This document shows positions 1-64,000 of a stretch of DNA of 64,000 bases, one piece after another. Position numbers and translations under genes: made by a program. Position 1 is the stretch's first letter; each line of letters opens with the position of its first letter. This DNA is from Candidatus Levybacteria bacterium RIFCSPLOWO2_01_FULL_38_21 (GTDB lineage: Bacteria > Patescibacteriota > Microgenomatia > Levybacterales > UBA12049), in the NCBI GenBank assembly GCA_001782475.1, contig MFOT01000024.1, positions 42,578-106,577 on the forward strand. The letters run 5' to 3'. The notes below the pieces were generated by a model. It was not told the origin of the DNA, searched no databases, and worked only from the letters and a program-made list of their open reading frames with translations.

Positions 1-18
1 GCCACGGAAAGATTTAGT

Positions 19-279
19 ATGGAATCTGGTGAGAGGTTAATAAAGAAGTTTTTTAAGAATGTGCAATTGCAAAAATACGCAAGTATAATTTCCGTAGATT
101 CTATTAACCCTTATCTTATCTACTGTAATACACTCCGCTATTTTTGGAATCAAGATTTTTCTGATTCCCAATGGAACGAAGTTATGGAATTTGTGAAAGA
201 GTACTTGCGGGAAATTTTAGCAAGACGTGGAGTAATAAAAGAAAGAAATATTTTTGGCATTTTTTTCGCTACAAGGTAA
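19..279 (+). CDS. hypothetical protein
   Basis: 86-aa ORF with no recognisable motif; sits directly upstream of the nucleotidyltransferase gene. Confidence 0.3.
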   Translation: MESGERLIKKFFKNVQLQKYASIISVDSINPYLIYCNTLRYFWNQDFSDSQWNEVMEFVKEYLREILARRGVIKERNIFGIFFATR

Positions 280-291
280 AAGATTAAGGAT

Positions 292-1002
292 ATGAAAAAA
301 GAAATTGAGGCTGTAATATTGGCGGGTGGACGAGGAAGAAGAATGGGCGAACTTACTGATTCAACTCAAAAATGTTTATTGCCCTTTAAAGACAAGCCAG
401 TACTCTTACATATTTTAGACACGATAAGCGATGCATTCGGATCAGCCAATGTTATAATAGCAACAGGCTATCATGGAGAAGATGTAAAAAAAATAGTTGG
501 AGATCAATATAGAAATATTCAAATAGAATACACCAATTCCCCTGAACAACTTGAAACTCGCAGAAGGCTTCTACTTGCAAAAAACTTACTGAAAGGACCT
601 TTTCTTCTGACTGCCGGAGATATAATTTATAATCCCGAACTCTTAACACAATTAGCTACTTCTTACGAAGCCAATAAAGTAGAAAGTATAATCGGCGCAA
701 TTTCAGTGAGCAGCCTCCACAAAGTAGCCCCTACTCACGCATTGATAGCTGTATCTGGAGGTTATGTAACGGAAATCACTTATCCTCCAACAACTACCTG
801 GCAAGCTAATCAGCTTAGAGAGATGGGTACTGCTTTTTATGATCATGATTTACTGCGCATCGCGGAACAGGCTTCTGCCAGCATTACACAAATAACAGAA
901 TTGATGATAGATGCTTTAAAAAATGGAGGGAAATTCCGAGCCGAACAGTATTTCTCGCAATGGTATCATTTTGCAACCCCAGAGGATTTAGTAAAATCTT
1001 GA
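292..1002 (+). CDS. sugar-phosphate nucleotidyltransferase (NTP_transferase family)
   Basis: N-terminal ILAGGRGRRMGELTDSTQKCLLPF matches the G-x-G-x-R signature of glucose-1-P nucleotidyltransferases. Confidence 0.7.
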   Translation: MKKEIEAVILAGGRGRRMGELTDSTQKCLLPFKDKPVLLHILDTISDAFGSANVIIATGYHGEDVKKIVGDQYRNIQIEYTNSPEQLETRRRLLLAKNLLKGPFLLTAGDIIYNPELLTQLATSYEANKVESIIGAISVSSLHKVAPTHALIAVSGGYVTEITYPPTTTWQANQLREMGTAFYDHDLLRIAEQASASITQITELMIDALKNGGKFRAEQYFSQWYHFATPEDLVKS

Positions 1003-1013
1003 AGATAGATAAC

Positions 1014-1040
1014 TCAAGCTCGACTTCTTCCCCGGATATA
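1014..1040. repeat. 27-bp direct repeat, left copy (TCAAGCTCGACTTCTTCCCCGGATATA)
   Basis: Exact 27-nt match with 3957..3983; the two copies bracket a 2.9-kb three-gene minus-strand cassette. Confidence 0.85.
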
Positions 1041-1069
1041 AATCGTAAATATTGGCAACAAACTTCCTT

Positions 1070-2071
1070 TCACCAATTTATACCCTTTTCTACTTCTTGA
1101 ATATACTGGTCAAAAGAATTAATTTCAACAATTGTCTTTCTACCAAAATAAAAAATAAATGCCTTTTTACGGAGAGCTTCATCATCTATGGCCCGACTTA
1201 TTTCAAACAACCATTTTCCATCCTGTCTTTGAATGGTTTGAGTACCAGCGTAAAAGAGCATTTTCTGTTCGTTCTCAGGCGAAATTGGTTCAACTTCCGT
1301 ATACGCTTGGATCATTTCACCGATAAATTGAGCCGCTTGCTGCGGAGTAATATATCCGAAGATGGAAAAGACGGGAATTTGACCGAAAAAGTTAGGTAAC
1401 ATATAGTCAGGGTCTCCAAAGTGGCAACAGTCAAAATCAATAGCCCTGACTGGTGAACCGGAATTGCCGAACAGGACGTTTTTTGGATGTCCGTCAGGCC
1501 AAACAAATTTTTGTTGACTTAAATACGTATTTCGCATCCGCTCTCCCCATGCGGGATATGCTAAATCTACCTCCATCCCCCGCGTCCAAATCTGTTCAAA
1601 CGGCTGCTCAATTGTAGAAAATGGCTGCCAATCGGCAGTTTCCTGTTTTAATTCTGCTAAAAATCTGCCTAGTGCGCGTGCGTGGATAGACTCTGCTTTA
1701 CCTTCAAGTAAATACGGGAAACCAAGTTGCGCATCTTGACCCACATCAGTCATAAGCAATACATCCTGCTCAGGATAAAACTGAAGCACATTCGGAACCA
1801 CAGTGGGAAAAAGCGGATGTAGATAAGTCAAAACTTCTGCTTCGGTGCGTATCCTCGTTTCAGACATAACTTGGCGTATGGGATAAAAGGAATCTCGATT
1901 CCTAGCGTGTTTAATAATTGTTGGTTGACCGTCTAATGCAGCCCTGAAGACCGTTGAAGTGTAACCGCCAGAAAGCAACTCAAAGTTGGTAGCTCTGATA
2001 CCTTGTTCAAATAGAAAAACTTGTAAACCGTCAGCTCCGTCAAGACTATAGGGATATTCTTTCATTTTCAT
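1070..2071 (-). CDS. phosphotransferase-family kinase (APH / MtnK / choline-kinase-like fold)
   Basis: DGHPKNVLFG ... VRAIDFDCCHFGDPDYML resembles the HGDxxxxN catalytic loop and IDFE/D motif of APH-family kinases. Start is probably at the MKMKEY Met (2071) rather than the ORF-track start (2107), because the next gene ends at 2046. Confidence 0.55.
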   Translation of the reverse strand: MKMKEYPYSLDGADGLQVFLFEQGIRATNFELLSGGYTSTVFRAALDGQPTIIKHARNRDSFYPIRQVMSETRIRTEAEVLTYLHPLFPTVVPNVLQFYPEQDVLLMTDVGQDAQLGFPYLLEGKAESIHARALGRFLAELKQETADWQPFSTIEQPFEQIWTRGMEVDLAYPAWGERMRNTYLSQQKFVWPDGHPKNVLFGNSGSPVRAIDFDCCHFGDPDYMLPNFFGQIPVFSIFGYITPQQAAQFIGEMIQAYTEVEPISPENEQKMLFYAGTQTIQRQDGKWLFEISRAIDDEALRKKAFIFYFGRKTIVEINSFDQYIQEVEKGINW

Positions 2072-3137
2072 TCGATTTCGCTTTCCAGTCTGGCCCAATA
2101 GATACAAGCGAAATAGCTGTCCTAAATTTATTTATGTCTATAGCTCCGTCGGTTGTTAGTGGTATAACTTCCCGCGTTTGTAGGAAGCAAGGAACCGCTG
2201 CTAATCCTACTGGCGTGGGAACGACCCGCATATGAATTTTGCGGCAGTTACCGCAATCCAAATCAGCGCAATGATCTTGAAAAAACTTGACTGCGGGTTT
2301 GGTTTTATCAGGATTTCCAGGCTCATGAAGATATACCTGGTTGAGTGATGGATAATAGTATGGCTCAAGATCAAATAAGTCGGCAATGTCGTTAAGTAAA
2401 GCCAGATATGCCTGTCTGGTTTCGTATTTAGTGCCCATAACTCCGTTGACTTCCAAGATATGTGTGGTCATAACTGGGCGATGCTTCATAGCCTCTCGTA
2501 GTACACTTAACACTCGTTCTTCATTGCCGGCATATACCACATTAATCTTTATGTCTCGGCCAGGCGTTTTCTCAAACTCCCCAGCTAAGGGAACTACTAC
2601 GTCCTGAAAAAGCTTGCGTCCCTCCGCACCGATAGTAGAATGATAAGGTTTAGACATTTCGCCTTCAATAAGTGAGTCAATGCCCAACGTTACTCTTTGA
2701 AGCGGAGAATCAACCATCATTGCTAGTTTTCGAGGACTTAAAAACGGAATCCCGTTAGTACTGATTCCCCATCTAATTCCTGGAAATTGCTCTTGCCAGT
2801 CATTACTAAGATTTCCAAGCAAAGTTTCTAAATGCCGGTATACTCCTGGATCACCGCCAGTCAACTTAATTGACTTAACTCCGAATTGCTGGGCAGTAGC
2901 GACTAATTGACCAATTGAATCTACGGAAACATCATATTCTGAAAGTTGTTCCCGTTTAGCCCAAGGAGGCGGTTGGCCTTCGTTGTGACAGTGTGGGCAA
3001 CGCAAATTACATCTAGGCGTGACTGACAGACGCAGATTGCGTCTACCTGGCATAACCGTTGGGGATGTTTCGACCTGAATTTGCTCAGGCGGAATGTTTT
3101 GAAAAACTTCGTTAGTAATTCGCTCTTTCATATACAC
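2046..3137 (-). CDS. radical SAM enzyme, MoaA/twitch-like, with a C-terminal auxiliary Cys cluster
   Basis: CNLRCPHCHNEG is a CxxxCxxC motif; KLTGGDPGV and GISTNG are MoaA-like; a second Cys cluster CADLDCGNCRK...C lies near the C-terminus. Confidence 0.7.
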   Translation of the reverse strand: MYMKERITNEVFQNIPPEQIQVETSPTVMPGRRNLRLSVTPRCNLRCPHCHNEGQPPPWAKREQLSEYDVSVDSIGQLVATAQQFGVKSIKLTGGDPGVYRHLETLLGNLSNDWQEQFPGIRWGISTNGIPFLSPRKLAMMVDSPLQRVTLGIDSLIEGEMSKPYHSTIGAEGRKLFQDVVVPLAGEFEKTPGRDIKINVVYAGNEERVLSVLREAMKHRPVMTTHILEVNGVMGTKYETRQAYLALLNDIADLFDLEPYYYPSLNQVYLHEPGNPDKTKPAVKFFQDHCADLDCGNCRKIHMRVVPTPVGLAAVPCFLQTREVIPLTTDGAIDINKFRTAISLVSIGPDWKAKSNENERISL

Positions 3138-3904
3138 GCAAGTATTGCTTTCGTCGATTTTTGATTTGTAACCAAAGTACTTTCTGAGTCTAATGTCCAG
3201 GCCCTACCATCAAGATCTAAAATTTCGCCGCCCGCTTCTTTGATAATGGACCATGCCGGGACAATTGCATAACGATCGGAATAATTATTTACCATTGCCT
3301 CAAGCCTTCCATGAGCCACATAGCAGATTGTTAATGCGACGGAACCGATGGCTCGTACAGTACATCTGCGACCAAGAGATGTAAACAAACGCACACCTTC
3401 CTCAATTTTTGCTTTACCCCTGCGCTTTTGCCAATCGACATTAATAAAAGCATGTTCGCCAAAAGGCCTTCGGGATACTGATATTTTTTTTCCGTTGCAA
3501 AAAGCACCTGTATGTTTTTGACCAATATATAGCTCGTCAAGCATTGGATCATATACGACTCCAAAAATTGGTTTTTTATTACGTATCAACCCCACCGCTA
3601 CCGCAAAGCCTGGTAGTCCATGGATAAAATTTCGTGTATTAGAAAGTGGATCGATATACCATTCGAACTCAGACGAGTTGGGCATTATGCCAGACTCCTC
3701 GCTGTAAACTGTATGGCTTGGATAAACAGCGGTAAGCGTTTTTATAATCAGTTTTTCAATCTGCGTATCAAAAGCGGTAACATAGCTTTGTTTTTCTTTT
3801 AGGGTATATCGTATCTTACTATCACAATTATTTCGAAGAAGAACACCTGCATCCCTAACAGCATCTATAACAGTCTTGTACATATATAAAAAAATCAGTG
3901 TCAA
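3128..3904 (-). CDS. inositol monophosphatase family phosphatase (IMPase / SuhB / CysQ-like)
   Basis: WYIDPLSNTRNF matches the WxIDPLDGT metal-binding motif; FGVVYDPMLDELY follows downstream. Start may instead be the MYKTV Met at 3883. Confidence 0.65.
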   Translation of the reverse strand: MTLIFLYMYKTVIDAVRDAGVLLRNNCDSKIRYTLKEKQSYVTAFDTQIEKLIIKTLTAVYPSHTVYSEESGIMPNSSEFEWYIDPLSNTRNFIHGLPGFAVAVGLIRNKKPIFGVVYDPMLDELYIGQKHTGAFCNGKKISVSRRPFGEHAFINVDWQKRRGKAKIEEGVRLFTSLGRRCTVRAIGSVALTICYVAHGRLEAMVNNYSDRYAIVPAWSIIKEAGGEILDLDGRAWTLDSESTLVTNQKSTKAILACI

Positions 3905-3956
3905 TTATACCAAATAGCACAAGGAAATGCGCGGATTCTAAAGCTGCAAAAGAACA

Positions 3957-3983
3957 TCAAGCTCGACTTCTTCCCCGGATATA
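3957..3983. repeat. 27-bp direct repeat, right copy
   Basis: Identical to 1014..1040. Confidence 0.85.
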
Positions 3984-4038
3984 CCTCCCCATAGCTTCGG
4001 TTCTTGACATTAGTCTTGATCTTGCCTAACATAAAAGA

Positions 4039-4758
4039 ATGGATACTAATCAGCTTCCTCAAGAACCACAAAAAAGGAAATTCAGCGGGCTATTGTTTTT
4101 GGAGGTTGGTTTAATTGAGGTATTCTCTGTTATTCTTGCACTGCTCCTGATTTTTGGAACCCTTAACTATTTTGGCATACTCCCCATCTCCGAATCCCTC
4201 CCCTTTCTTTCCTTTCTTCCGCAGAAACAAAAAACAATTACGAATAAAACTGTAAAAACCAGCACTCAATCAAAATCAAACAAGCAGTTGCCTATAGAGA
4301 TATTAAGAACCATCCCTGTCGTTGGCTGCCCAGTTGAACAAAATTTGTGTACGAATGGCGTAACTATTCCAGAATCTAAAGAAAATACCGCATCGCTTTC
4401 CGCAATCGCCTATAATTTAGAACAAGGGGCCACAGTCTCGGCTGTGATGAATGGTGATATAGAAATAAAAAATGAAAACATAAATGGACAAAAGCTGCTT
4501 ATATTAAGCATTATAAATAAATCAAGAAATATTAAGGTAAATTATGAATTTGAGATCAATTCATTCAGATATACAGCTTCTCAAGCTAATAAGACTGAGC
4601 AAGGAAAGGTCTTGGGGAATATAGTTGGTGAAGACACGATCAATCAATTTGGCAATAAATTTAATCTGATCTTTTCTGTCCAAAACCTAAATGCTCTCCA
4701 GTACCTCAAAATAAAACCTTCCCCAGACGGTAAAGGAATCCTCAACACTGGATTTTAA
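4039..4758 (+). CDS. hypothetical membrane-anchored protein
   Basis: N-terminal hydrophobic helix LLFLEVGLIEVFSVILALLLIFGTL; no catalytic motif. Confidence 0.35.
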   Translation: MDTNQLPQEPQKRKFSGLLFLEVGLIEVFSVILALLLIFGTLNYFGILPISESLPFLSFLPQKQKTITNKTVKTSTQSKSNKQLPIEILRTIPVVGCPVEQNLCTNGVTIPESKENTASLSAIAYNLEQGATVSAVMNGDIEIKNENINGQKLLILSIINKSRNIKVNYEFEINSFRYTASQANKTEQGKVLGNIVGEDTINQFGNKFNLIFSVQNLNALQYLKIKPSPDGKGILNTGF

Positions 4759-4919: not shown

Positions 4920-5162
4920 ATGAATCAGACAATTACCGTATCTCAAGAAACAATCGAGGAAATTCTTACTCGTCTTGACAGACTCACTAGAGAAATAAAA
5001 GCTATTAGGACAAAACTTTTTGAAGAGGAACCGCCCTATGGAAGCGACGAGTGGTGGGAATGGTCTGATAAAAAATCGATCGAAGATTACAAAAAAGGTC
5101 GCTATACAGTGATTCGTTCAAAAAAAGAACTTAATGAATTTTTTAGTTCGTTAGGAAAATAA
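4920..5162 (+). CDS. putative antitoxin, partner of the RelE/ParE-like toxin
   Basis: 80-aa ORF; its stop lies 1 nt before the toxin gene start, the usual antitoxin-toxin gene order. Confidence 0.4.
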   Translation: MNQTITVSQETIEEILTRLDRLTREIKAIRTKLFEEEPPYGSDEWWEWSDKKSIEDYKKGRYTVIRSKKELNEFFSSLGK

Positions 5163-5163
5163 A

Positions 5164-5424
5164 GTGAAACAAATTCTTCTTACAAAAGGGACTGAGAGAT
5201 CTTTTAAACGGCTTCCAAAGAAGAATCAAGAAAAAACCAAGAAACAATTTGAACTTTTATTAGCCAATTATCGTCATCCTTCGCTTCGAGCACGCAAAAT
5301 GCCCGGAGCAAACTATTTCGAGGCAAGAATTGATATACACTACCGTTTTACTTTTAGTTTAGTGAGGAAAGGAATTTTAGTTCTGACTATTGGTCCCCAC
5401 GATGAAGGGTTAGGGAAAAAGTGA
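5164..5424 (+). CDS. RelE/ParE-family type II toxin
   Basis: C-terminal RKMPGANYFEARIDIHYRFTFSLVRKGILVLTIGPHDE follows the RelE/ParE pattern (G..L.e.R...YRiiy...d..v.vl.igHR). Confidence 0.6.
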   Translation: MKQILLTKGTERSFKRLPKKNQEKTKKQFELLLANYRHPSLRARKMPGANYFEARIDIHYRFTFSLVRKGILVLTIGPHDEGLGKK

Positions 5425-5473: not shown

Positions 5474-6262
5474 ATGGGGAATAGAATTGAAAAATCTCCA
5501 AGAAGAATGTCGAGAAGAAGGTTATTGAAGTTAGGAGGCTTGGCGGCTGGTGCTGTCGTCGCTAGCGCTTTGCTTGAAGCCTGCGGAGGCGGAGCTGAAA
5601 CGACAACTCCAAACCCAACTGCAGATGTATTGAAAACGGAAAGCCCGATGCCATCGGCAACCCCTATGGCAACCCAAGCTGCCGAATCCCCCATCCCAAC
5701 TGCTATTAGCACAGCGAAGCCGCCAGAACCAACCCCAACCCCAACAGAAGTATCTAAAGCCCCAGTCAATTGTGAAGTTCTCCCCCAGGAATTCTGCTCC
5801 CAGGGAAAAAGAATAACAATGGAACTTCAAGGGGAAAAACATGAGTACATTGCATTCAATTTACCCCCAGGTACTCCTATTCTTGCTCGATTTGATGGTC
5901 TTTTAGACAAAATCGAAGAGAGCGGTGATCCATTTTCCGGCTTTAGCGCAGTACTGACGCCTGATAACTATAGATCCTTTGATATTGCTAGAGGAGATAT
6001 CCATTTCGACGATATGATACAAAGGCAAGTAAGGCAGGGCGATGTAATTGGCTATGTGGGTGATGCAGGCATCAAGAATTTTGACTACAATGTTCTTTAC
6101 CTAATTAGTACTGCAAGTCCTGACGGACCGATTATTGATGAAGGAAAAATGAAGGAATTGTTTCCCGAGGCATTTGAAAAGGAGAGTGTAGAGATTACGT
6201 ATAATGGCCCTGTTAACCCCCCAGTATCCTACGACTATTCCTCTACCCCTCCAGGCCAATAA
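5474..6262 (+). CDS. Tat-signal lipoprotein with a degenerate (non-catalytic) LytM/M23 peptidase domain
   Basis: SRRRLLKLGGLAAGAVVASALLEAC is a twin-arginine signal with lipobox; a PT-rich linker follows; the C-terminal domain (HEYIAFNLPPGTPILARFDG ... QGDVIGYVGDAGIKNFDYNVLYL) aligns to the M23 HxxxD and G.IGyvGsTG..HLHFE motifs but lacks the catalytic Asp and His residues. Confidence 0.5.
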   Translation: MGNRIEKSPRRMSRRRLLKLGGLAAGAVVASALLEACGGGAETTTPNPTADVLKTESPMPSATPMATQAAESPIPTAISTAKPPEPTPTPTEVSKAPVNCEVLPQEFCSQGKRITMELQGEKHEYIAFNLPPGTPILARFDGLLDKIEESGDPFSGFSAVLTPDNYRSFDIARGDIHFDDMIQRQVRQGDVIGYVGDAGIKNFDYNVLYLISTASPDGPIIDEGKMKELFPEAFEKESVEITYNGPVNPPVSYDYSSTPPGQ

Positions 6263-6337: not shown

Positions 6338-6910
6338 ATGGGGGTTTTATTTAAAAAACCAATTTTTTGGATTGGAATAATTATTGTATTAATAATTGGG
6401 CTTCTAATCCTTGTTCTCCAATCTACTAGTCCTAAGAATCTCAAAAATATTTCTCCAAAAATATCTGAGAAATCAAAATCAGGGCCAAAGCCCGGAACCT
6501 GCCTTATCTTAGAACAAAAATTCTGCTCCCAGGAAAAAAGAATAACAATAGAAGTTCAAGGGTTAAAACATGAGTACATTGCCTTCAATCTGCCCCCTGG
6601 CACTCCTCTTTTTGCTCGATTTGATGGTCTTTTAGACAAAACTAAAGAGAGTGATGCTCCATTTTCTGATTTTAGCGCGTCACTAACGTTTAATAATTAC
6701 AAATCTTTTGATATTATCAGAGGAGATTTTAGTTTCGACAGCATGCTACAGAAAAACGTAAAACAAGGCGAGATAATTGGCTATGTGGGCGATACAGGCG
6801 TCAAAGACTTTGGTTACAACGTTCTTTATCTAATTACTACTGCCGGCCCTAACGGACCGATTATTGATGAGGGAAAAATGAAAGAGTTATTTCCCAAGGT
6901 TCTAAAGTAA
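6338..6910 (+). CDS. membrane-anchored paralog with a degenerate LytM/M23 domain
   Basis: N-terminal TM helix; its C-terminal ~150 aa are near-colinear with 5474..6262 (HEYIAFNLPPGTPLFARFDG ... QGEIIGYVGDTGVKDFGYNVLYL). Confidence 0.5.
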   Translation: MGVLFKKPIFWIGIIIVLIIGLLILVLQSTSPKNLKNISPKISEKSKSGPKPGTCLILEQKFCSQEKRITIEVQGLKHEYIAFNLPPGTPLFARFDGLLDKTKESDAPFSDFSASLTFNNYKSFDIIRGDFSFDSMLQKNVKQGEIIGYVGDTGVKDFGYNVLYLITTAGPNGPIIDEGKMKELFPKVLK

Positions 6911-6911
6911 T

Positions 6912-9900
6912 ATGAAGTTAAGCAAATTTTTGGCTGTCCCCGCAGTAACTTTTCTATTTTTTGTCTTCTTATCTGGCAGTGCCTATGCTTCTTTCTCTTA
7001 CTCATACGATTCCTCTCCGCCCTCCGCCGACCAGGTAGCTGATTCATTCTGCGCTGGCTCCATCCAGACTTGTTGGAACAGTTCGTCTGTTGGTGTAACA
7101 GATTGTGGAACTGCTTGTACCGGCGGTAACGCCTGGGAAAAGCATGTATATTCAGGCTGTTATTATGTAGCTTTTTTAGGTTATAAGGCATGGCTTCCAT
7201 TTGCATCCGCTACCTGCTCAACCGGGGATAAGTGTACGAGTAGTTGGCCTTATCTAAACGCTGGATATTGCGATTGCTCAGTCGGAGGCATATATAAAAC
7301 CTGCTGTGATACTACGACAGGAAGAGCTGATGGGGCTTGCGTGGCATATGCTGTTGATACCACAAATCCTCCATGGGAAGGTTATTGTCCTGCGGGAACA
7401 GCGACGGAGTTCTGTGGCTTCGGAGGCTATCCTGCCTGCGGAGATGCGGCTTGCGCAAAGTACGCCCCCCCTCCAGATTGTAATACTGGGGTTTCTTGTT
7501 CTGGAGCCTGCAGCGCGCCGGCAAATACCTGCTCTACAAATAATGGAACGCAAACAAGCTGTGTCTATACAGCCTACAGCGGAGGAGGATCCTGCACTCA
7601 AACAACTGCTCCCAACCAACAATGCACAGTTAATAATTGTTCTGCGGGATATACTTGCCAGAGTGGCATTTGTACGGCAGGACCGAATCCTCCTACTGCC
7701 GCAATCAACGGACCCACTTCCATTACACTTGGCCAATCAGGCAGCTTTACTGCAACCGCCAACCAAGACTCAACCAGTTCGCTTGCATCCGGAGAAATTT
7801 ATTGGTCGCCAACCGGTTCTCAATCCTGGACTCTTCTTAATCCCGTAGCTGCGCTTTCGGGCTCAACTGGGTCATTTTCCAGAACGTGGACTCCGACTGC
7901 TACCGGTACTTACTACGTAGTTGTCAACGCTTACAATGTAAATGGCCAACAATGCACAGGTAATCCTTTCGGGATTGATCCCGGCTGGGTTAATTGCGGA
8001 TCAAACGATGCTGTAACTGTCACAGTCACAACTGTAGCAGCAACCCCAACCCCAACTCCCACACCTGCCTCTTCATGCAATGCTGCGTGCATTGCAAGTG
8101 GTTATTATTATGGAATATGCCAAGGTGCATGCGGTGGAAACTATGATGGATCGCCTAGTCAATATGAATGTGCAAGTAATATTGGTGCACCTCTTTGCTG
8201 TTGTTCACGTGTGCCAGCCACTCCAACTCCAACCCCGACTGGCGCTCCAACTCCCACTCCAACTCGAGCTCCCTCAACATACGACATTTCTGGTACTGTT
8301 TGGGTAGATACCAATGGGAATGGGTTTAAGGACATATTAGAAGATGGATTCCAGAGCGCTCGCATAACCATAACCGGCGGTGCTTTTAGGAATACAGACA
8401 ACTCTGGATTTTACCTTTTTTCAAGTCTAGCTTCCGGAACATATACAATTACTCTTACTGTACCTTCTGGCTATATCTTAACCACTTCAAATCCTGTCAC
8501 CAGAACCCTCCCGAACAATGCCACAGCTAATTTTGGGATACAACCCCTATCAACCATCTCTGGAACTGTATTTGTGGACACTAATGGGAGTGGGGCTAAG
8601 GACACAGGAGAACCGGGATACAGCGGGGCTACCCTAACCGGACCCGGCGGTGAGACTGATACTACAGGCGCCAGTGGATCTTACGGTTTTCCAGGTCTAG
8701 CTTCCGGAACCTATACAATTACTCTTACTGTACCTTCTGGCTATATCTTAACCACTTCAAATCCTGTCACCAGAACCCTCCCGCCCGATGCCACAGCTAA
8801 TTTTGGGATAAGATTCAACAAGCCAGACCTGGTTGTCTCAAATCTTAGTGTCCAGTCGGTTGCCGCAGGCCCGATAACACCAAGAGATGGCAGTAGCTTT
8901 GATACCAATGGCGGCTCGGGCGCAAGTTGGTCAAATCCAACCTATGCTCAGACTTCCAATAGCCAGCGCGCCTCTGTTTCACTGGACGGTAATCCCAGTT
9001 CCCGTTATCTTAAGGCTCAAGGCTTTGGTTTTAACATTCTACCCGGTTCTACCATCAATGGTATTCTCGTTGAGGTAGAACGCAGGGCCGAAGAAGAAGG
9101 CTGGGGCGGCAATCCCAGAATAGTAGATGATGTCATCAGACTTGTCAAAGCCGATGGAACAATTGGCGGAAGTAACAGAGCAGGCAGTAGTTACTGGCCA
9201 GAATCGGATGCTTATACAAGCTATGGCTCAGGTACCTACCTGTGGGTCCTAACCTGGACACCGGCCGATATCAATAATTCCAATTTTGGGGTGGCAGTCT
9301 CGGCCAGGAATGAGGGTGATGACGCAATTGCATACATTGACCATATCCGTATCACGGTGTATTTAGCTTCCGAAGCAGGAGAGTCGTTAGAAGCAGTCTT
9401 TACCTTAAAAAATAACAGTTCTATTACCACGCCACCCGGGGTTAATTTTAGGATTGATCTTTGGCCGGACCGCACCAGCTCTCCCAATCTTGGAGAACTA
9501 AGTGATTGTACCCCGACCCCTTGTAAGATAGACCAAACAGAAATGGCCGCCAATGAACAGAGATCCGTGACTATACCTTTCACCGCTCCCTTAACCGCTG
9601 GAACAAAGACGGTCCAAATTTTGGCTGATTCGCCGGACGTCATTGACGAAATGGAGGAGTTAACTAATAATAGGATATCTAAAATCTACTTTGTTACTGC
9701 ACCCCCAACATACACAATTTCTGGAAATGTATTTGTAGACGCCGATAAAAATCGGCTCAAGAATGGAGGGGAGACAAACTACACAGGCGCAATCACTATT
9801 TCCTCAACAGAAGGAACTGTATCTGCTCCCTCTGGTACTGGGGTTTACACTGTAGACGGTTTAATAGAAGGAACATATACAATTTCTTACACAGATCTTC

Positions 9901-10904
9901 CTTCTGGATATCAACTAACATATCCTCTAAACGGTCCCCCGCCCTCTTTTACGGTTACGGTTGGGGCATCTTGTTCTGTTGGCGGTTCAAACAGCGCAAC
10001 TTGCGGTGGAGGAAGCATTTCAAATCTTAACTTTGGCATAACCAATTCAAATCCATGGATCCAGTCAACCTGTACAGATATAAGATTTGATACTGGCTTT
10101 GATGACCCCATACCAATAACCGCTGATCCTGTTCTCTGTGGCGGGCCAAATGCATCTATCAATGCATCTATTTCAGTCGTTTGCACAACTCCGGGAATCA
10201 TTATGTCTGGAGACAGCTCATATTCCTTTGGTCAAGGACAGGCCTCATCTACGAACTGGGTCGTGGGGGGAACTACCTATCCGGAAGTTTTTGCTCCCAC
10301 AAGAGGAGGCGGCTTTGCAACTTCTTACGCATATGTCTTATCTGTTATAAAACAAGCAGGTCTAACACCAACGGATCTTTCAACCGTATGTACCCTTTCA
10401 AACTGCACTTTACCCGCAGGATTTTCTCACGGTCTTTACAAGGCAAATTCTGATCTCTACCTTAACGCTTTTACATTCCTAGCCTCATCAAATTATGTAA
10501 TCTTGGTCAACGGAAATCTCTACATTCGCGGTAAAATCCTCGTACCAAATGGTTCAACCGCAACCTTTATTGTCTCTGGCAACATTTATGTAGACCAAAC
10601 CGTAGGAGAAGCAGTTATTTCATCAACAACCCCTGATATTGAAGGCTTCTATAGTACGGATAAGAGTTTTATAATCCAGGGTACAAACGACTGCATGGTG
10701 GGAGCGGATTTACGACTAAATGTTGCCGGCACAATTGTAGTTAATGCAGGACTTACGGGCGGATCATTCCAAAACTTAAGAGATCTTTGCGGAGGAAATC
10801 TTTCCTGTCCTGTATTTTCGATATCAGAAAGGCCAGATTTTATTCTAAATGCTCCGGAGGTAATAAAAAGACAGAATGCAATTTATCAGGAAGTAGCACC
10901 CTAG
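6912..10904 (+). CDS. giant secreted/cell-surface protein (1330 aa) with Cys-rich N-domain, PT linkers and tandem Cna-B/SdrD-B-like repeats
   Basis: Signal peptide MKLSKFLAVPAVTFLFFVFLSGSAYAS; about 40 Cys in the first 400 aa; linkers ATPTPTPTPASS and PATPTPTPTGAPTPTPT; two near-identical repeats ...SGTYTITLTVPSGYILTTSNPVTRTLP..ATANFGI... (DNA 8404-8530 and 8665-8800). Confidence 0.6.
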   Translation: MKLSKFLAVPAVTFLFFVFLSGSAYASFSYSYDSSPPSADQVADSFCAGSIQTCWNSSSVGVTDCGTACTGGNAWEKHVYSGCYYVAFLGYKAWLPFASATCSTGDKCTSSWPYLNAGYCDCSVGGIYKTCCDTTTGRADGACVAYAVDTTNPPWEGYCPAGTATEFCGFGGYPACGDAACAKYAPPPDCNTGVSCSGACSAPANTCSTNNGTQTSCVYTAYSGGGSCTQTTAPNQQCTVNNCSAGYTCQSGICTAGPNPPTAAINGPTSITLGQSGSFTATANQDSTSSLASGEIYWSPTGSQSWTLLNPVAALSGSTGSFSRTWTPTATGTYYVVVNAYNVNGQQCTGNPFGIDPGWVNCGSNDAVTVTVTTVAATPTPTPTPASSCNAACIASGYYYGICQGACGGNYDGSPSQYECASNIGAPLCCCSRVPATPTPTPTGAPTPTPTRAPSTYDISGTVWVDTNGNGFKDILEDGFQSARITITGGAFRNTDNSGFYLFSSLASGTYTITLTVPSGYILTTSNPVTRTLPNNATANFGIQPLSTISGTVFVDTNGSGAKDTGEPGYSGATLTGPGGETDTTGASGSYGFPGLASGTYTITLTVPSGYILTTSNPVTRTLPPDATANFGIRFNKPDLVVSNLSVQSVAAGPITPRDGSSFDTNGGSGASWSNPTYAQTSNSQRASVSLDGNPSSRYLKAQGFGFNILPGSTINGILVEVERRAEEEGWGGNPRIVDDVIRLVKADGTIGGSNRAGSSYWPESDAYTSYGSGTYLWVLTWTPADINNSNFGVAVSARNEGDDAIAYIDHIRITVYLASEAGESLEAVFTLKNNSSITTPPGVNFRIDLWPDRTSSPNLGELSDCTPTPCKIDQTEMAANEQRSVTIPFTAPLTAGTKTVQILADSPDVIDEMEELTNNRISKIYFVTAPPTYTISGNVFVDADKNRLKNGGETNYTGAITISSTEGTVSAPSGTGVYTVDGLIEGTYTISYTDLPSGYQLTYPLNGPPPSFTVTVGASCSVGGSNSATCGGGSISNLNFGITNSNPWIQSTCTDIRFDTGFDDPIPITADPVLCGGPNASINASISVVCTTPGIIMSGDSSYSFGQGQASSTNWVVGGTTYPEVFAPTRGGGFATSYAYVLSVIKQAGLTPTDLSTVCTLSNCTLPAGFSHGLYKANSDLYLNAFTFLASSNYVILVNGNLYIRGKILVPNGSTATFIVSGNIYVDQTVGEAVISSTTPDIEGFYSTDKSFIIQGTNDCMVGADLRLNVAGTIVVNAGLTGGSFQNLRDLCGGNLSCPVFSISERPDFILNAPEVIKRQNAIYQEVAP

Positions 10905-42743: not shown

Positions 42744-43724
42744 TTATTTCTTCTTAACTTCCCTGCCCTGAGCTTTTATCCTGAGCGGAGTCGAAGGATG
42801 CCGAATGGGGTGGCCGCCGAAAGCGTTTCGAAGAGCAGAAATCATTTTTGCGGTAAAGGAATTTTGAATTTTTGGATTCTCTTGAGATCTTTTTCTAAAA
42901 TCAAGCGATCTTTCAATAATCTCAACCGGGACGTTTTCTTCTTTCGCCTGATCAATCGTCCAATCTGCTTCTCCCGAGCTTTCGATAAAACCTGAAGATT
43001 TTGATAAATTCGGATCTTTTTTTAAAACATCGACTACCCTATCAAGCATAAAGCCTGAAACCAGTGTCCCTTTTTGCCAAAGCTTTGCAACTTTAAGAAG
43101 ATCAAATTCGTACGGAGCTTTTTCTAAAACCTCAAACCCTTCCGAAAGACTTTGCATAATTCCATATTCTATTCCGTTATGAACCATTTTTATAAAGTGT
43201 CCTGCTCCTCCCTCTCCAAAATATTCATATCCTCCATTGGGTTTTGAGAGAGTATCCAAAATTGTAGTGATGTATTGATACGCTGAGACATCGCCGCCGA
43301 CCATTAGAGGGTATCCAGTTTTTTCGGCAATAATTCCCCCCGAAACTCCAATTCCCAAAAATCTTATCCCTTTTATCTTTAACTGCCTATATCTTCTTGC
43401 AGTATCTTTAAAATAAGAATTTCCTCCATCTATAATAATATCTTCTGTTTCTATAAATTTGACAACTTCATTTAAAGTACTCTCTGTTACGGAACCTGCC
43501 GGAAGCATTAACCAAATAACTCTTGGTTTTTCAAGACTTTTAACCATCCACTCTATAGTTTTAAATAGTCTGTATTTTGCGCCTTTAAAAGAAGCCAGTT
43601 TCGCTTCTAATTTTTTAAAAGGCTCCTCTGATCTATTCCATATTGAAACTTCGTGTCCGTCCAAGATAAGTTTTGCCACTATCCGACTTCCCATTTTTCC
43701 AAGTCCAATAAACCCGACTTTCAT
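42744..43724 (-). CDS. gnd: 6-phosphogluconate dehydrogenase, decarboxylating (short YqeC/GntZ-like form)
   Basis: MKVGFIGLGKMGSRIV NAD-binding N-terminus; 6PGDH C-domain; adjacent to zwf and pgl. Confidence 0.7.
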   Translation of the reverse strand: MKVGFIGLGKMGSRIVAKLILDGHEVSIWNRSEEPFKKLEAKLASFKGAKYRLFKTIEWMVKSLEKPRVIWLMLPAGSVTESTLNEVVKFIETEDIIIDGGNSYFKDTARRYRQLKIKGIRFLGIGVSGGIIAEKTGYPLMVGGDVSAYQYITTILDTLSKPNGGYEYFGEGGAGHFIKMVHNGIEYGIMQSLSEGFEVLEKAPYEFDLLKVAKLWQKGTLVSGFMLDRVVDVLKKDPNLSKSSGFIESSGEADWTIDQAKEENVPVEIIERSLDFRKRSQENPKIQNSFTAKMISALRNAFGGHPIRHPSTPLRIKAQGREVKKK

Positions 43725-61520: not shown

Positions 61521-61585
61521 TGGGTCGGGATGGAATCGAACCATCTACCTGTCGCCTCAGGCGACCGTTCTGCCCATTGAAACAG
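61521..61585 (-). tRNA. tRNA-like gene, 3' portion (positions ~8-73, encoded CCA follows at 61518-61520); lacks the 5' acceptor strand; aberrant anticodon arm
   Basis: Minus-strand reading: CTGTTTCAATGGGCAGAACGGTCGCCTGAGGCGACAGGTAGATGGTTCGATTCCATCCCGACCCA + CCA. The T-arm GATGG-TTCGATT-CCATC is canonical. The anticodon arm is a perfect GTCGCC-TGA-GGCGAC hairpin, giving a 3- or 5-nt loop. Confidence 0.5.
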
Positions 61586-61657
61586 TGGGCACGGATAGAA
61601 TCGAACTATCCACCTCTTCTTTATCAGAGAAGCGTTCTACCAATGAACTACGTGCCC
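61586..61657 (-). tRNA. tRNA-Ile (anticodon GAU)
   Basis: GGGCACG-TA-GTTC-ATTGGTA-GAAC-G-CTTCT-CTGATAA-AGAAG-AGGTG-GATAG-TTCGATT-CTATC-CGTGCCC-A forms a canonical cloverleaf; CCA is not encoded. Confidence 0.8.
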
Positions 61658-61892: not shown

Positions 61893-61947
61893 TGAACCAT
61901 CTAGCTGTCGCCTCAGGCGACCGTTCTAGCCGGTGAACTACCGACCC
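61893..61947 (-). tRNA. tRNA-like gene, 5' portion (positions 1-56), truncated within the T-loop
   Basis: GGGTCGG-TA-GTTC-ACCGGCTA-GAAC-GGTCGCCTGAGGCGACAG-CTA-GATGGTTC, then diverges (AAAATG...). Positions 21-56 are duplicated at 61533-61568 with one mismatch. Confidence 0.5.
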
Positions 61948-63283: not shown

Positions 63284-64000
63284 ATTTCGATAACTTGGGT
63301 TGTTTCGAGTTCCCACTAGACAAGCGGTTTTCCCGCATCTAGCGAGCCCCTGTTCATCTGTGATTTTAACTGTCGAATCTTCTTATATCCTTCATTACTT
63401 TTATGTTCTCCATTCTTTACCATTAAAGCGATTCGCCGAAAGAGTAAATAATTTTTAAGCTTTTTGCTATGAAGCTGGTTCTTATCAAAAAAAGGTATTA
63501 TTTTTTCATGTAAATCTTTTTGAGCAGTTACGCCAAATCTGTAACAATTTTTTTGATTTGCACGATATTCCTTTTGATAATATACTCCACCGCAATCAAA
63601 AAACTTCTGAACTTTCTTGAGTAATGGAAGTTCGTCTTCCCGAAGTTTTATGAAAAAGTGCATTTCTACTCGAGATTTATGAGTTCTGTTTGGAACTCTA
63701 GTCGCTACATAAAAACACCCTTCTCCATCAGTTAATCCTACGATATAATCATCAGATAAACGATTAGGTTTTTCCCTTCCCCCGCTAAGCGGGGTACTAT
63801 GGATCTGCTGACTTCTCTTCTTCAAGTTCATCTACCTTGAGAATAGATAAACAATTACCCAATTGTCAAGAAGAGATCTCCTAAGGTCACTTACCAAACA
63901 ATTCCTGGCATCCTAATTAGACTTTTTATATGTTCTTCCCTTAGACACACCTGATTAAGGTCGAACGTCTATTTTTTATTAGGCTGTCATTTGCTTCAGG
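63284..64000 (-). mobile_element. 16S rRNA intron (probably group I) inserted near E. coli position ~1400, continuing beyond the window
   Basis: The expected TGTGTACA following CCGCCCGTCA is replaced by more than 700 nt of non-rRNA sequence that contains a LAGLIDADG ORF. Confidence 0.6.
63316..63831 (-). CDS. LAGLIDADG homing endonuclease encoded within the 16S intron
   Basis: DYIVGLTDGEGCFYV is a single LAGLIDADG motif in a 171-aa protein (homodimer type). Confidence 0.75.
   Translation of the reverse strand: MNLKKRSQQIHSTPLSGGREKPNRLSDDYIVGLTDGEGCFYVATRVPNRTHKSRVEMHFFIKLREDELPLLKKVQKFFDCGGVYYQKEYRANQKNCYRFGVTAQKDLHEKIIPFFDKNQLHSKKLKNYLLFRRIALMVKNGEHKSNEGYKKIRQLKSQMNRGSLDAGKPLV

Follow-up and report, generated by a model that had tools for sequence, protein, structure and literature searches.

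Results

The DNA analysed (the window) is a stretch of 64,000 nt from Candidatus Levybacteria bacterium RIFCSPLOWO2_01_FULL_38_21, a CPR bacterium (assembly GCA_001782475.1, contig MFOT01000024.1, positions 42,578 to 106,577, forward strand). Near its left end, three co-oriented genes lie on the minus strand between two copies of the 27-mer TCAAGCTCGACTTCTTCCCCGGATATA, which occur on the plus strand at 1014-1040 and 3957-3983, while the flanking genes are on the plus strand. The first gene of this operon (3128-3883) encodes an inositol-monophosphatase (IMPase)-family phosphatase (Pfam PF00459, 176 bits against a cutoff of 27); no NCBIfam equivalog cutoff was reached, and its best PDB matches are IMPases and SuhB (2.5e-34). 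The second gene (2046-3131) encodes a radical SAM enzyme (PF04055, 60 bits) which has the CX3CX2C motif plus a C-terminal Cys motif (C288, C293, C296, C315) that is conserved in an alignment of 25 homologues. This protein is MoaA-like but not MoaA, since the NCBIfam model for MoaA (GTP 3',8-cyclase, TIGR02666) gave 80 bits against a cutoff of 284 and covered residues 31-231 only. A profile search of the PDB hit MoaA 1TV7 (6e-18), and the best fold match of the AF2 model (pLDDT 89.8) was MoaA 2FB2 with a TM of 0.59/0.65 at 19% identity. The last gene (1070-2071) encodes an APH-family phosphotransferase (kinase) of 333 aa (PF01636, 36.9 bits against a cutoff of 23.2) with a weak MtnK match far below cutoff and no sequence match in the PDB. 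A candidate extended -10 promoter element (TGgTATAAT, 3904-3912, minus strand) lies inside the cassette 20 nt upstream of the IMPase ATG; it is inferred only from reading the sequence, and a consensus scan did not list it because no -35 hexamer is present.

To the left of the operon, a sugar-phosphate nucleotidyltransferase gene (292-1002, plus strand, PF00483) is preceded by the 3' part (1-279, plus strand) of a SAM-dependent methyltransferase gene, which was identified by Pfam methyltransferase domains and starts 555 nt left of the window (9155-9988 of L001, the record of this contig that extends left of the window). To the right lies ORF4039 (4039-4758, plus strand), a predicted membrane protein with a candidate promoter (TTGACA-17-TAACAT) at 4004-4032. 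The left copy of the 27-mer, an attL-like junction, lies 11 nt after the nucleotidyltransferase stop and 29 nt beyond the kinase stop, while the right copy, an attR-like junction, lies 73 nt upstream of the IMPase ATG and 55 nt upstream of the ORF4039 ATG.

We next tested whether the repeat is real. No other match with up to 3 mismatches was found in the window, and 0 of 100 shuffles gave any match. Aligning 100 nt on either side of the two copies showed that identity stops sharply at both ends of the 27 nt, and the comparison of the upstream and downstream intergenic regions of the operon gave 27/27, which was reached by 0 of 1000 shuffles. The arrangement is not an assembly artefact, since it is identical in the source scaffold, in a JGI assembly, and in an independent MEGAHIT contig from another sample built with k=141, where k exceeds the repeat length. 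In addition, a third, degenerate copy (21/27) was found 664 nt left of the window, at L001 9046-9072. Hence, the observation made in the earlier note, that an exact 27-bp direct repeat brackets this three-gene operon, is confirmed.

In order to find an unoccupied site, which the earlier note had set as the decisive test, we searched for protein homologues and inspected the contigs that carry them. A related Levybacteria species (species B; contigs L017, L018 and L019) is syntenic over about 20 kb and lacks the trio. It has a single copy of the 27-mer (25/27) at the same position (L017 10723-10749), 11 nt after the nucleotidyltransferase stop and 56 nt before the ORF4039 homologue, and its intergenic length is 94 nt, compared to the 93 nt predicted from the window after removing the cassette. 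The 45 nt to the left of the left copy in the window are 44/45 identical to species B. The 27-mer is not a dispersed repeat, since no further copy was found in the 74 kb examined (the window and the 9.7 kb to its left), and exact scans for the 22-nt core of the repeat in metagenome and genome collections found nothing, neither other carriers nor empty sites. Protein-pattern scans with the nucleotidyltransferase returned no close relative in the genome collection and only distant ones in the metagenome collection. The three genes are not in conserved synteny with these flanks in relatives.

The 27-mer is not an arbitrary site. It encodes IKLDFFPGY, the last nine sense codons of an FAD/NAD-binding (FNR-like) oxidoreductase gene, which in related Levybacteria sits between the Na+/H+ exchanger gene and ORF4039. 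In species B, a further copy is the true 3' end of this gene (...RIKLDFFPGYTSE, followed by a stop), and of 120 listed family members all but one, which appears truncated, end in an IK.D.FPGY-like sequence. In our genome the FNR-like gene body has been deleted, and the degenerate third copy is orthologous to the FNR end of species B. The full left remnant of the gene end (1001-1048, plus strand) reads EDR-stop-LKLDFFPGYKS-stop in the FNR frame and is non-functional; a tblastn search with the species-B FNR protein hit 1001-1045, and its right flank AATCGTAAATATTGGCAA resembles the native downstream sequence of FNR in species D and E. The full right remnant (3944-3994, plus strand) reads LQKNIKLDFFPGYTSP followed by a stop, with 11/11 residues identical to the species-B FNR C-terminus by tblastn, and the right copy forms a 33-nt match at 97%, including 5 extra bases (CCTCC), to the real FNR gene end of species B. 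When the right halves of the two window copies are exchanged, two coherent FNR allele types are restored that occur in real genes (EKDR..TSE in genes P0100/P0101; SKN..KE, SEN..ES and SEN..KS), as expected for attL/attR hybrids.

The content after this gene end differs among five syntenic species (this genome being species A), with one contig per genome: nothing, methyltransferase and nucleotidyltransferase, that pair plus the trio, a longer cassette, or unrelated insertions. In species B, the methyltransferase and nucleotidyltransferase pair is bracketed by copies at L017 9053-9079 and 10723-10749, and in our genome the same pair is bounded by the degenerate copy and the left copy. In species C, FNR is followed directly by the ORF4039 homologue (75% aa identity; 45% for the homologue that follows the single 27-mer in species B), and in species D by a truncated ORF4039. 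In species E (contig L020), FNR is followed by a longer cassette (methyltransferase, nucleotidyltransferase, a 403-aa protein and DJ-1) bracketed by copies at 850-876 and 4539-4565. The displaced copies keep native FNR downstream sequence (species B copy versus C, 31/35; species E copy versus D), and no shuffle of 500 reached the observed score in either comparison. The two copies in species E belong to different FNR alleles (F versus H codon), which is not a simple duplication. The adjacent cassette shows mosaic tracts of 87-98% identity between species that are otherwise about 70% identical, so DNA is exchanged at this locus, and a hybrid contig of species A and B exists.

The trio is a conserved unit that is found with unrelated flanks in other Patescibacteria, where it is also bracketed by significant direct repeats (24-32 nt) of other sequence. 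The flanking repeats of loci L010 and L011 are terminator hairpins of marginal significance (28 of 1000 shuffles) and were not counted as evidence, and an apparent resemblance between the window repeat and the repeat of locus L006 was not supported by translation or alignment. The neighbours of the trio in other genomes are often toxin-antitoxin, Abi, Fic, IS or restriction genes, which is an association only; a defence function was not supported, since a search gave only a weak pVip match for the radical SAM protein and nothing for the other two. The radical SAM family is absent from IMG/VR apart from remote hits and absent from PLSDB, and a degenerate codon pattern for KLD.FPGY hit only a terminase gene by chance in viral contigs. 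A literature search for the three-gene combination found nothing relevant. GC, GC3 and codon usage of the trio are within the host range, so there is no compositional sign of recent foreign origin and the composition test suggested in the earlier note is uninformative.

We next looked for a recombinase. Only the kinase, radical SAM and IMPase genes lie between the repeats, no integrase, resolvase or transposase Pfam domain was found in window ORFs of at least 120 aa, and none was found in the 9.7 kb to the left. None of the five arrays contains an integrase-bearing element that could be the helper. The only recombinase homologue nearby, a syntenic Xer-like gene, is unlikely to be the cassette recombinase, since it lacks the catalytic Arg and His and in two species ends before the Tyr region; the 377-aa protein at its place in species C is unrelated. 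The 27-mer has no dyad symmetry typical of tyrosine-recombinase core sites and no dyad like that of a 28-bp dif-like site with two inverted arms of roughly 11 bp around a 6-bp spacer, and there is no GC-skew switch in the surrounding 12 kb. Terminal inverted repeats, which would be expected for a transposon, were not found at the cassette ends, and no tRNA or tmRNA lies near the repeat.

We also considered whether the repeat is a functional cis-element (operator, terminator or RNA motif) kept at both ends of the operon, or a chance or assembly duplication. The right copy does lie in a divergent promoter region. However, folds of both copies on both strands are no better than shuffles (z = +0.5 to +1.8), there is no Rfam hit, and the left copy sits between convergent gene ends, where it has nothing to regulate. 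Chance is excluded by the shuffles and three assemblies agree. Given the empty site and the origin of the repeat as a decayed coding fragment of another gene, this reading is refuted on present evidence and we regard it as very unlikely.

Discussion

These results support, with fairly high confidence, that the 3' end of an FNR-like gene acts as an attachment site where gene cassettes have been inserted one after another, each insertion leaving another copy of the gene end. In this view, the array in this genome reads: degenerate copy, the older methyltransferase and nucleotidyltransferase cassette, copy, the trio with its own candidate promoter, copy, and ORF4039. The trio would have arrived by a reciprocal crossover inside the 27 identical bases between a resident copy (flanks EDR...TSP-stop, the species-B allele type) and a copy carried on the incoming DNA (flanks QKN...KS-stop, the species-D/E allele type), and the cassette would be cargo only. 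The duplication, the empty site, the coding origin of the repeat, the variable content of the site among species and the absence of a recombinase gene in 74 kb are what the analysis establishes, whereas it is inferred that the incoming DNA was a circle or a donor segment already carrying the site, and that a site-specific recombinase encoded elsewhere made the crossover. The 20 nt right of the right copy do not match the species-B or species-C sequence at that position, so a simple history of a circle entering a resident copy needs an extra step or a donor-derived right flank. The earlier note's interpretation, att-site duplication by an integrated element without its own integrase that may rely on a recombinase supplied in trans, is supported, with the corrections that the site is the 3' coding end of a gene serving an array of cassettes rather than a stand-alone att site, that excision or a circular form would be conjecture only, and that host homologous recombination remains a live alternative.

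The alternative of host recombination is possible, although we tentatively prefer a trans-acting site-specific recombinase, itself at somewhat less than even confidence. In this alternative, DNA taken up from co-occurring related Levybacteria is integrated by general homologous recombination, with the short identical FNR-end segments, and on the right perhaps the longer ORF4039 homology, serving as crossover points, and the repeats are by-products of shuffling among genomes that already carry duplicated gene ends. The lack of a recombinase gene in 74 kb, the apparently inactive Xer-like gene, the clear mosaic tracts in the neighbouring cassette between species A and B and the hybrid contig are consistent with this, as is the mismatch right of the right copy, which is expected if the right crossover lay further right in donor DNA. 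In addition, the identity ends exactly where the conserved peptide motif ends, which is where two diverged alleles would share their longest identical run. A length of 27 nt is near the minimum for RecA-dependent exchange in E. coli. RecA-independent exchange between short direct repeats of a small integrase-less island has also been reported (PMC5426353). However, this alternative does not explain how the first duplication of the gene end arose in any genome. Three independent cassette borders (species A, B and E) all fall in the same segment of roughly 27-40 nt although the much longer homology of the FNR gene body lies next to it, and the 24-32-nt repeats of unrelated sequence around stand-alone trios elsewhere suggest a process that regularly yields repeats of this size.

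It is unlikely that the trio is ancestral here and that relatives lost it by deletion between the repeats. Such a deletion would leave exactly the single copy seen in species B, and the trio composition is host-like. In contrast, four of the five syntenic species lack the trio, and species C and D, which are closer to this genome than species B is, have FNR joined directly to ORF4039 with native downstream sequence, so several independent precise losses would be needed. The flanks of two different FNR allele types also point to an incoming partner. In either case, recombination at the 27-mer is the mechanism.

Among known systems, CIMEs (cis-mobilizable elements) in tandem accretion with ICEs/IMEs, as in Streptococcus, keep attL and attR but have no integration or transfer genes, sit at the 3' end of a target gene, and pile up at the att copy that contains the gene end (PMC5704250), and here three copies of the gene end and two adjacent cassettes are found. 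CIMEs are decayed ICEs/IMEs found with integrase-bearing partners, whereas the cassettes here are tiny (1.7-3.7 kb) and contain only metabolic genes with no relic of mobility genes, no integrase-bearing partner is seen in any of five species, the host is a CPR bacterium and the target is an FNR-like gene. Pseudo-SCC elements and composite SCC islands at the 3' end of orfX/rlmH in staphylococci are arranged in tandem and are presumed to depend on a recombinase supplied by another element (PMC2900268); for SCC the recombinase (CcrAB/CcrC, large serine recombinases) is known, whereas none was identified here, and in this genome the target gene itself has been lost, leaving only remnants. Integron gene cassettes also form an array of small cassettes at one fixed site, separated by a recurring recombination sequence, without their own recombinase and with content that differs between close relatives. 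However, no intI-type integrase or active-looking tyrosine recombinase lies next to this array, the repeats have no attC-like hairpin and derive from a coding sequence, and the cassettes carry several genes, have their own candidate promoter and lie in either orientation. The small E. coli K12 island (PMC5426353) is likewise bounded by short direct repeats and lacks its own site-specific recombinase; it was shown experimentally to delete by RecA-independent exchange, while the events here are deduced from sequence and the repeat is a conserved gene end shared between species.

A more far-reaching reading, which we consider unlikely, is that the end of the FNR-like gene is the docking site of a so-far undescribed cassette-capture system in Levybacteria and other CPR bacteria. 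Small promoter-bearing metabolic cassettes without any mobility gene would circulate among co-occurring species and be inserted, stacked and removed at a conserved coding sequence by an unidentified recombinase, functionally like an integron but built on a housekeeping gene end. The trio would be one of its travelling cargos and would encode a new radical-SAM pathway.

CPR/Patescibacteria have tiny genomes and cannot be grown alone, and how they gain and lose genes is poorly known. This locus gives a clean example of gene gain in such an organism, resolved to the base, with occupied and empty sites, and identifies a specific hotspot, the end of a conserved flavoprotein gene, whose content differs in each of five related species. 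Extra copies of the IK.D.FPGY-coding sequence give a simple search handle for more cassettes and, possibly, the responsible recombinase. The locus also flags a conserved three-enzyme operon (IMPase-like phosphatase, remotely MoaA-like radical SAM enzyme and APH-like kinase) that moves between genomes as a unit and whose role, inferred from sequence alone, is probably a small-molecule (sugar-, cyclitol- or nucleotide-phosphate) modification pathway built around the radical SAM enzyme. If the crossover turns out to be made by host recombination on 27 nt of identity, that would itself be informative about gene flow between co-occurring CPR species.

The repeat and the gene cassette

The 27-mer TCAAGCTCGACTTCTTCCCCGGATATA occurs exactly twice in the window, at 1014-1040 and 3957-3983 on the + strand (copy 1 and copy 2, respectively). 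No further match with up to 3 mismatches exists in the window, and none appeared in 100 shuffled sequences. Alignment of 100 nt on either side of the two copies showed that similarity stops at both ends of the 27 nt. Between the copies lie three overlapping minus-strand genes, which encode an APH-family kinase (1070-2071), a radical SAM enzyme (2046-3131) and an IMPase-family phosphatase (3128-3883). In contrast, the neighboring genes, a nucleotidyltransferase gene (292-1002) and ORF4039 (4039-4758), are on the + strand. To determine whether this arrangement could result from misassembly, we compared independent assemblies. The window is part of a 106-kb scaffold (ENA ERZ28563625 scaffold_320, equal to JGI Ga0209541_10000234), and an independent k=141 MEGAHIT contig from another sample carries both copies and differs by two bases over about 7.1 kb. 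Since a 27-nt repeat cannot confuse a k=141 graph, the arrangement is real, and the earlier note was correct in describing three co-oriented genes bracketed by perfect 27-bp direct repeats.

We next tested whether the repeat belongs to a known class of intergenic element. It has no stable fold on either strand (z-scores +0.5 to +1.8), it is not a terminator or a known RNA, and it is not next to a tRNA. It is also not a dispersed repeat, since no further copy above chance was found in the 64-kb window when up to 9 mismatches were allowed, and the 22-nt core is absent from the genome and metagenome contig collections that were scanned. The GC, GC3 and codon usage of the three genes lie within the range of the other 60 genes in the window, so the compositional comparison suggested in the earlier note says nothing either way.

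An empty site in a related species

The nucleotidyltransferase has a 62%-identical homologue in Candidatus Levybacteria MAGs, and the contigs that carry it (L017, L018 and L019; hereafter species B) are syntenic with the source scaffold (species A) over about 20 kb. The shared order is a Glucodextran_B-domain gene, an M24 peptidase gene, an Xer-like gene, HisRS, L31, RF-1, a Na+/H+ exchanger gene, the methyltransferase and nucleotidyltransferase genes, the ORF4039 homologue, a small gene pair, two paralogous genes and a large SdrD_B-repeat protein. Species B has no kinase, radical SAM or IMPase genes at this position. Instead, it has one copy of the repeat (TTAAGCTCGACTTCTTCCCCGGGTATA, 25/27) 11 nt after the nucleotidyltransferase stop, and after another 56 nt comes the ATG of the ORF4039 homologue. 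This intergenic region is 94 nt long, while removing the cassette and one repeat from the window predicts 93 nt. A single-copy empty site between these two genes had been named beforehand as a test of the insertion reading, and the result is positive.

The 27-mer is the end of an FNR-like gene

Species B has a second copy of the repeat 1.67 kb to the left (L017 9053-9079). There it forms the last codons of a gene for a 227-aa FAD_binding_6/NAD_binding_1 (FNR-like) oxidoreductase, which ends in RIKLDFFPGYTSE followed by the stop codon. This protein family is widespread in Patescibacteria (1220 hits), and all but one of the 120 listed members end in IK.D.FPGY-like sequence followed by 0-7 variable residues, while the one exception appears truncated. 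The 27-mer is therefore the coding sequence of the conserved C-terminal motif, and its sharp borders are the borders of that motif.

In the window, both copies translate in this frame. The left one (1001-1048) reads EDR, a stop codon, LKLDFFPGYKS and a second stop codon, and the right one (3944-3994) reads LQKNIKLDFFPGYTSP followed by a stop codon. This genome has no FNR-like gene in the 74 kb examined. A third, degenerate copy (21/27; copy 0) lies 664 nt left of the window at 9046-9072 of L001, the source-scaffold locus that extends beyond the window. Its right flank is orthologous to the sequence after the FNR gene of species B (38/40). At L001 8972-9154, the gene body, which is conserved in the four related species and in more than 1000 Patescibacteria proteins, is deleted, leaving only about 30-45 nt of its 3′ end.

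The content of the site differs in each species

Contigs carrying FNR homologues gave three more syntenic species. In species A, the order is the degenerate copy, methyltransferase and nucleotidyltransferase genes, copy 1, the three-gene unit (the trio), copy 2 and ORF4039. In species B, the FNR end is followed by the methyltransferase and nucleotidyltransferase genes, a copy and the ORF4039 homologue. In species C (L021 and L022), FNR is followed directly by the ORF4039 homologue, which has 75% amino acid identity to that of the window, and there is one copy. In species D (L023-L025), which also has one copy, FNR is followed by a 63-aa 5′ fragment of ORF4039 and then by DUF3800 and PIN genes. 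Here the ORF4039 homologue is cut down by an insertion carrying the DUF3800 and PIN-domain genes, a full-length but very divergent (19% identity) 228-aa ORF lies further on, and no extra FNR-end copies are present there (L023 10749-10940 and L025 6729-9762). In species E (L020), FNR is followed by a methyltransferase, a nucleotidyltransferase, a 403-aa protein, a DJ-1/PfpI gene and a second copy with 4 mismatches (KSENIKLDHFPGYKS, then a stop codon).

The displaced copies keep the native sequence that follows FNR in genomes without insertions. The species-B copy matches species C at 31/35 and the species-E copy matches species D, and in neither comparison did any of 500 shuffles reach the observed score. 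This is the pattern expected when DNA is inserted into the end of a gene, in which the incoming DNA supplies a new gene tail and the old tail is pushed downstream.

The two window copies are hybrids

Among real FNR genes, the residues just before IKLD and the tail after GY go together. One type has (D/E)R with TSE (family members P0100 and P0101), and the other has (E/K)N with ES, KE or KS (family members P0102, P0108, P0110 and P0112, species D, and the displaced copy of species E). In contrast, the window copies are mixed, with EDR...KS in one and QKN...TSP in the other. Exchanging their right halves gives EDR...TSP, the resident species-B-like type, and QKN...KS, a species-D/E-like type that would be the site carried by the incoming DNA. 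In addition, the 30 nt to the right of copy 1, inside the cassette, resemble native FNR downstream sequence of the D/E type. A reciprocal crossover inside the 27 identical bases explains these results, whereas a staggered-cut target duplication does not. One detail does not fit the simplest history, since the 20 nt right of copy 2 differ from species B and C at that position; either the right flank came in with donor DNA or it was later replaced. The repeat copies, the empty site, the coding origin of the repeat and the differing content among species were observed directly in the sequences, while the incoming site, the crossover and the enzyme that would have made it are inferred.

Evidence for DNA exchange at the locus

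Species A and B are 68-76% identical in flanking housekeeping genes. The methyltransferase and nucleotidyltransferase cassette (L001 9046-10749 versus L017 9053-10749; window 1-1040 plus 664 nt to the left) is, however, a mosaic in which blocks of 87-98% identity next to the repeat copies alternate with about 60% identity elsewhere. Identity is 87-95% in the 500 nt after copy 0, 94% in a 100-nt block and 44/45 in the last 45 nt before copy 1. The same segments are not conserved against species E, so constraint does not explain them. Moreover, one 130-kb contig (L016; ENA ERZ4903072 k141_2904761) is identical to species B up to position ~10049, at the 5′ end of the nucleotidyltransferase gene, and identical to species A, including the trio, from ~10104 (L016 10000-10110 corresponds to window 291-401). 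It has two private substitutions in the 54-nt zone shared by the two species, and it is either a natural inter-species recombinant or a chimeric contig.

The trio is a conserved unit (radical SAM 55-75% identical) in other Patescibacteria contigs with unrelated flanks, which are often toxin-antitoxin, AbiEii, Fic, IS, restriction or integrase genes. Where the trio stands alone between intergenic spacers, it is again bracketed by direct repeats of other sequence. In two such contigs, L006 (7067-7098 and 10127-10158) and L007 (4135-4166 and 7195-7226), the repeat is 32 nt with 28-30 identical, and a third weaker copy lies exactly 1000 nt upstream, one gene away across a BacA gene. In contig L013 (about 2560-2609 and 5620-5666), the repeat is 24 nt or more. 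None of 1000 shuffles reached either score. In contig L010, the flanking similarity is between two terminator hairpins and was not counted, and in contigs L004 and L005 the trio is embedded in longer operons and has no flanking repeats.

Further features were found in the window. Two small adjacent genes (4920-5162 and 5164-5424; 80 and 86 aa, 1-nt spacing) are arranged like a toxin-antitoxin pair but have no Pfam hit, and species B has a different pair (DUF433 plus a PIN-like DUF5615) at the same position, so this is a second variable slot about 1 kb from the cassette. Tandem paralogous genes (5474-6262 and 6338-6910) share a 300-nt stretch at 80% identity and are followed by a 1330-aa SdrD_B-repeat surface protein (6912-10904) with internal 256-nt repeats. 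Four copies of a 24-nt motif (TGTAGTGATGTATCAATACATCAA, 75-100% identity) with an internal palindrome, at 43263, 53435, 53889 and 61057, may be an operator or another intergenic signal. A 44-nt direct repeat (61538-61581 and 61894-61937; 89% identity) has a G+C-rich hairpin-like core, and one copy abuts tRNA-Ile (61585-61657). At the window end, downstream of tRNA-Cys and tRNA-Ile, a LAGLIDADG endonuclease ORF overlaps an Rfam group II intron D1-D4 match (63316-63851, minus strand; 38 bits against a gathering score of 35).

No recombinase was found at the locus

No integrase, resolvase or transposase domain occurs in the cassette, in window ORFs of at least 120 aa, or in the five arrays. A tyrosine-recombinase homologue is conserved 5-6 kb to the left in species A, B and D (L001 3685-4575, about 6 kb left of the window; L018 2107-2886; L023 4589-5419), whereas species C has an unrelated 377-aa protein at that position. 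This homologue scores far below the Xer cutoffs, has TGASV or TGVFV where the catalytic TGxR is expected and LRN in place of LRH, and lacks the catalytic Arg and His. In species B and D, it ends before the catalytic Tyr region. It is probably not an active recombinase and is possibly a domesticated, inactive one.

Two possibilities remain for the crossover. A site-specific recombinase may be encoded elsewhere or on a helper element, since three independent cassette borders fall in the same short segment although long FNR homology lies beside it, and similar-sized repeats flank the trio at other sites. Alternatively, the host's homologous recombination may have acted on 27 nt of identity, which is favored by the mosaic tracts, the absence of any helper and the divergent right flank. 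We tentatively prefer the former, although by a narrow margin and without excluding the latter.

The cargo genes

The phosphatase is a clear IMPase-family member, and its best solved relatives are inositol monophosphatases and SuhB. The radical SAM protein belongs to a distinct family with invariant CX3CX2C and C-terminal Cys motifs. Its nearest relative by sequence and by predicted fold is MoaA, but it is far below the family cutoff (80 against 284 bits; TM about 0.6), and the next closest folds are SPASM/twitch enzymes, viperins and DesII. The kinase is an APH-fold protein with no close solved relative. An extended -10 element (TGgTATAAT, 3912-3904 on the minus strand), inferred from the sequence, lies inside the cassette, so the unit appears transcriptionally self-contained. 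For the function of the trio, a possible phosphate-ester (cyclitol, sugar or nucleotide) modification pathway is the most that can be said.

Comparison with known systems

The closest analogues are cis-mobilizable elements in tandem accretion at the end of a target gene (PMC5704250) and ccr-less pseudo-SCC elements at the end of orfX/rlmH (PMC2900268). The locus shares their structural criteria, in that the cargo is att-flanked and has no recombinase, it lies in tandem with a second element sharing the att sequence, and the att site is the gene end. It differs in that the cassettes are very small and purely metabolic with no relic of mobility genes, no recombinase-bearing partner is seen in any of the five species, the target gene is new, and the hosts are CPR bacteria. 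The locus is not an integron, since there is no attC hairpin and no intI; it is not a dif/Xer module, since there is no dyad site; and it is not a transposon, since there are no inverted repeats and no transposase.

Taken together, these results support and extend the interpretation in the earlier note, which had proposed att-site duplication by an integrated or excisable element, or a recombination-generated island, that may rely on a recombinase supplied in trans. Although the general phenomenon is familiar, the locus is an unusually well-resolved case of gene gain in a CPR genome, and it provides a usable handle on a cassette hotspot.
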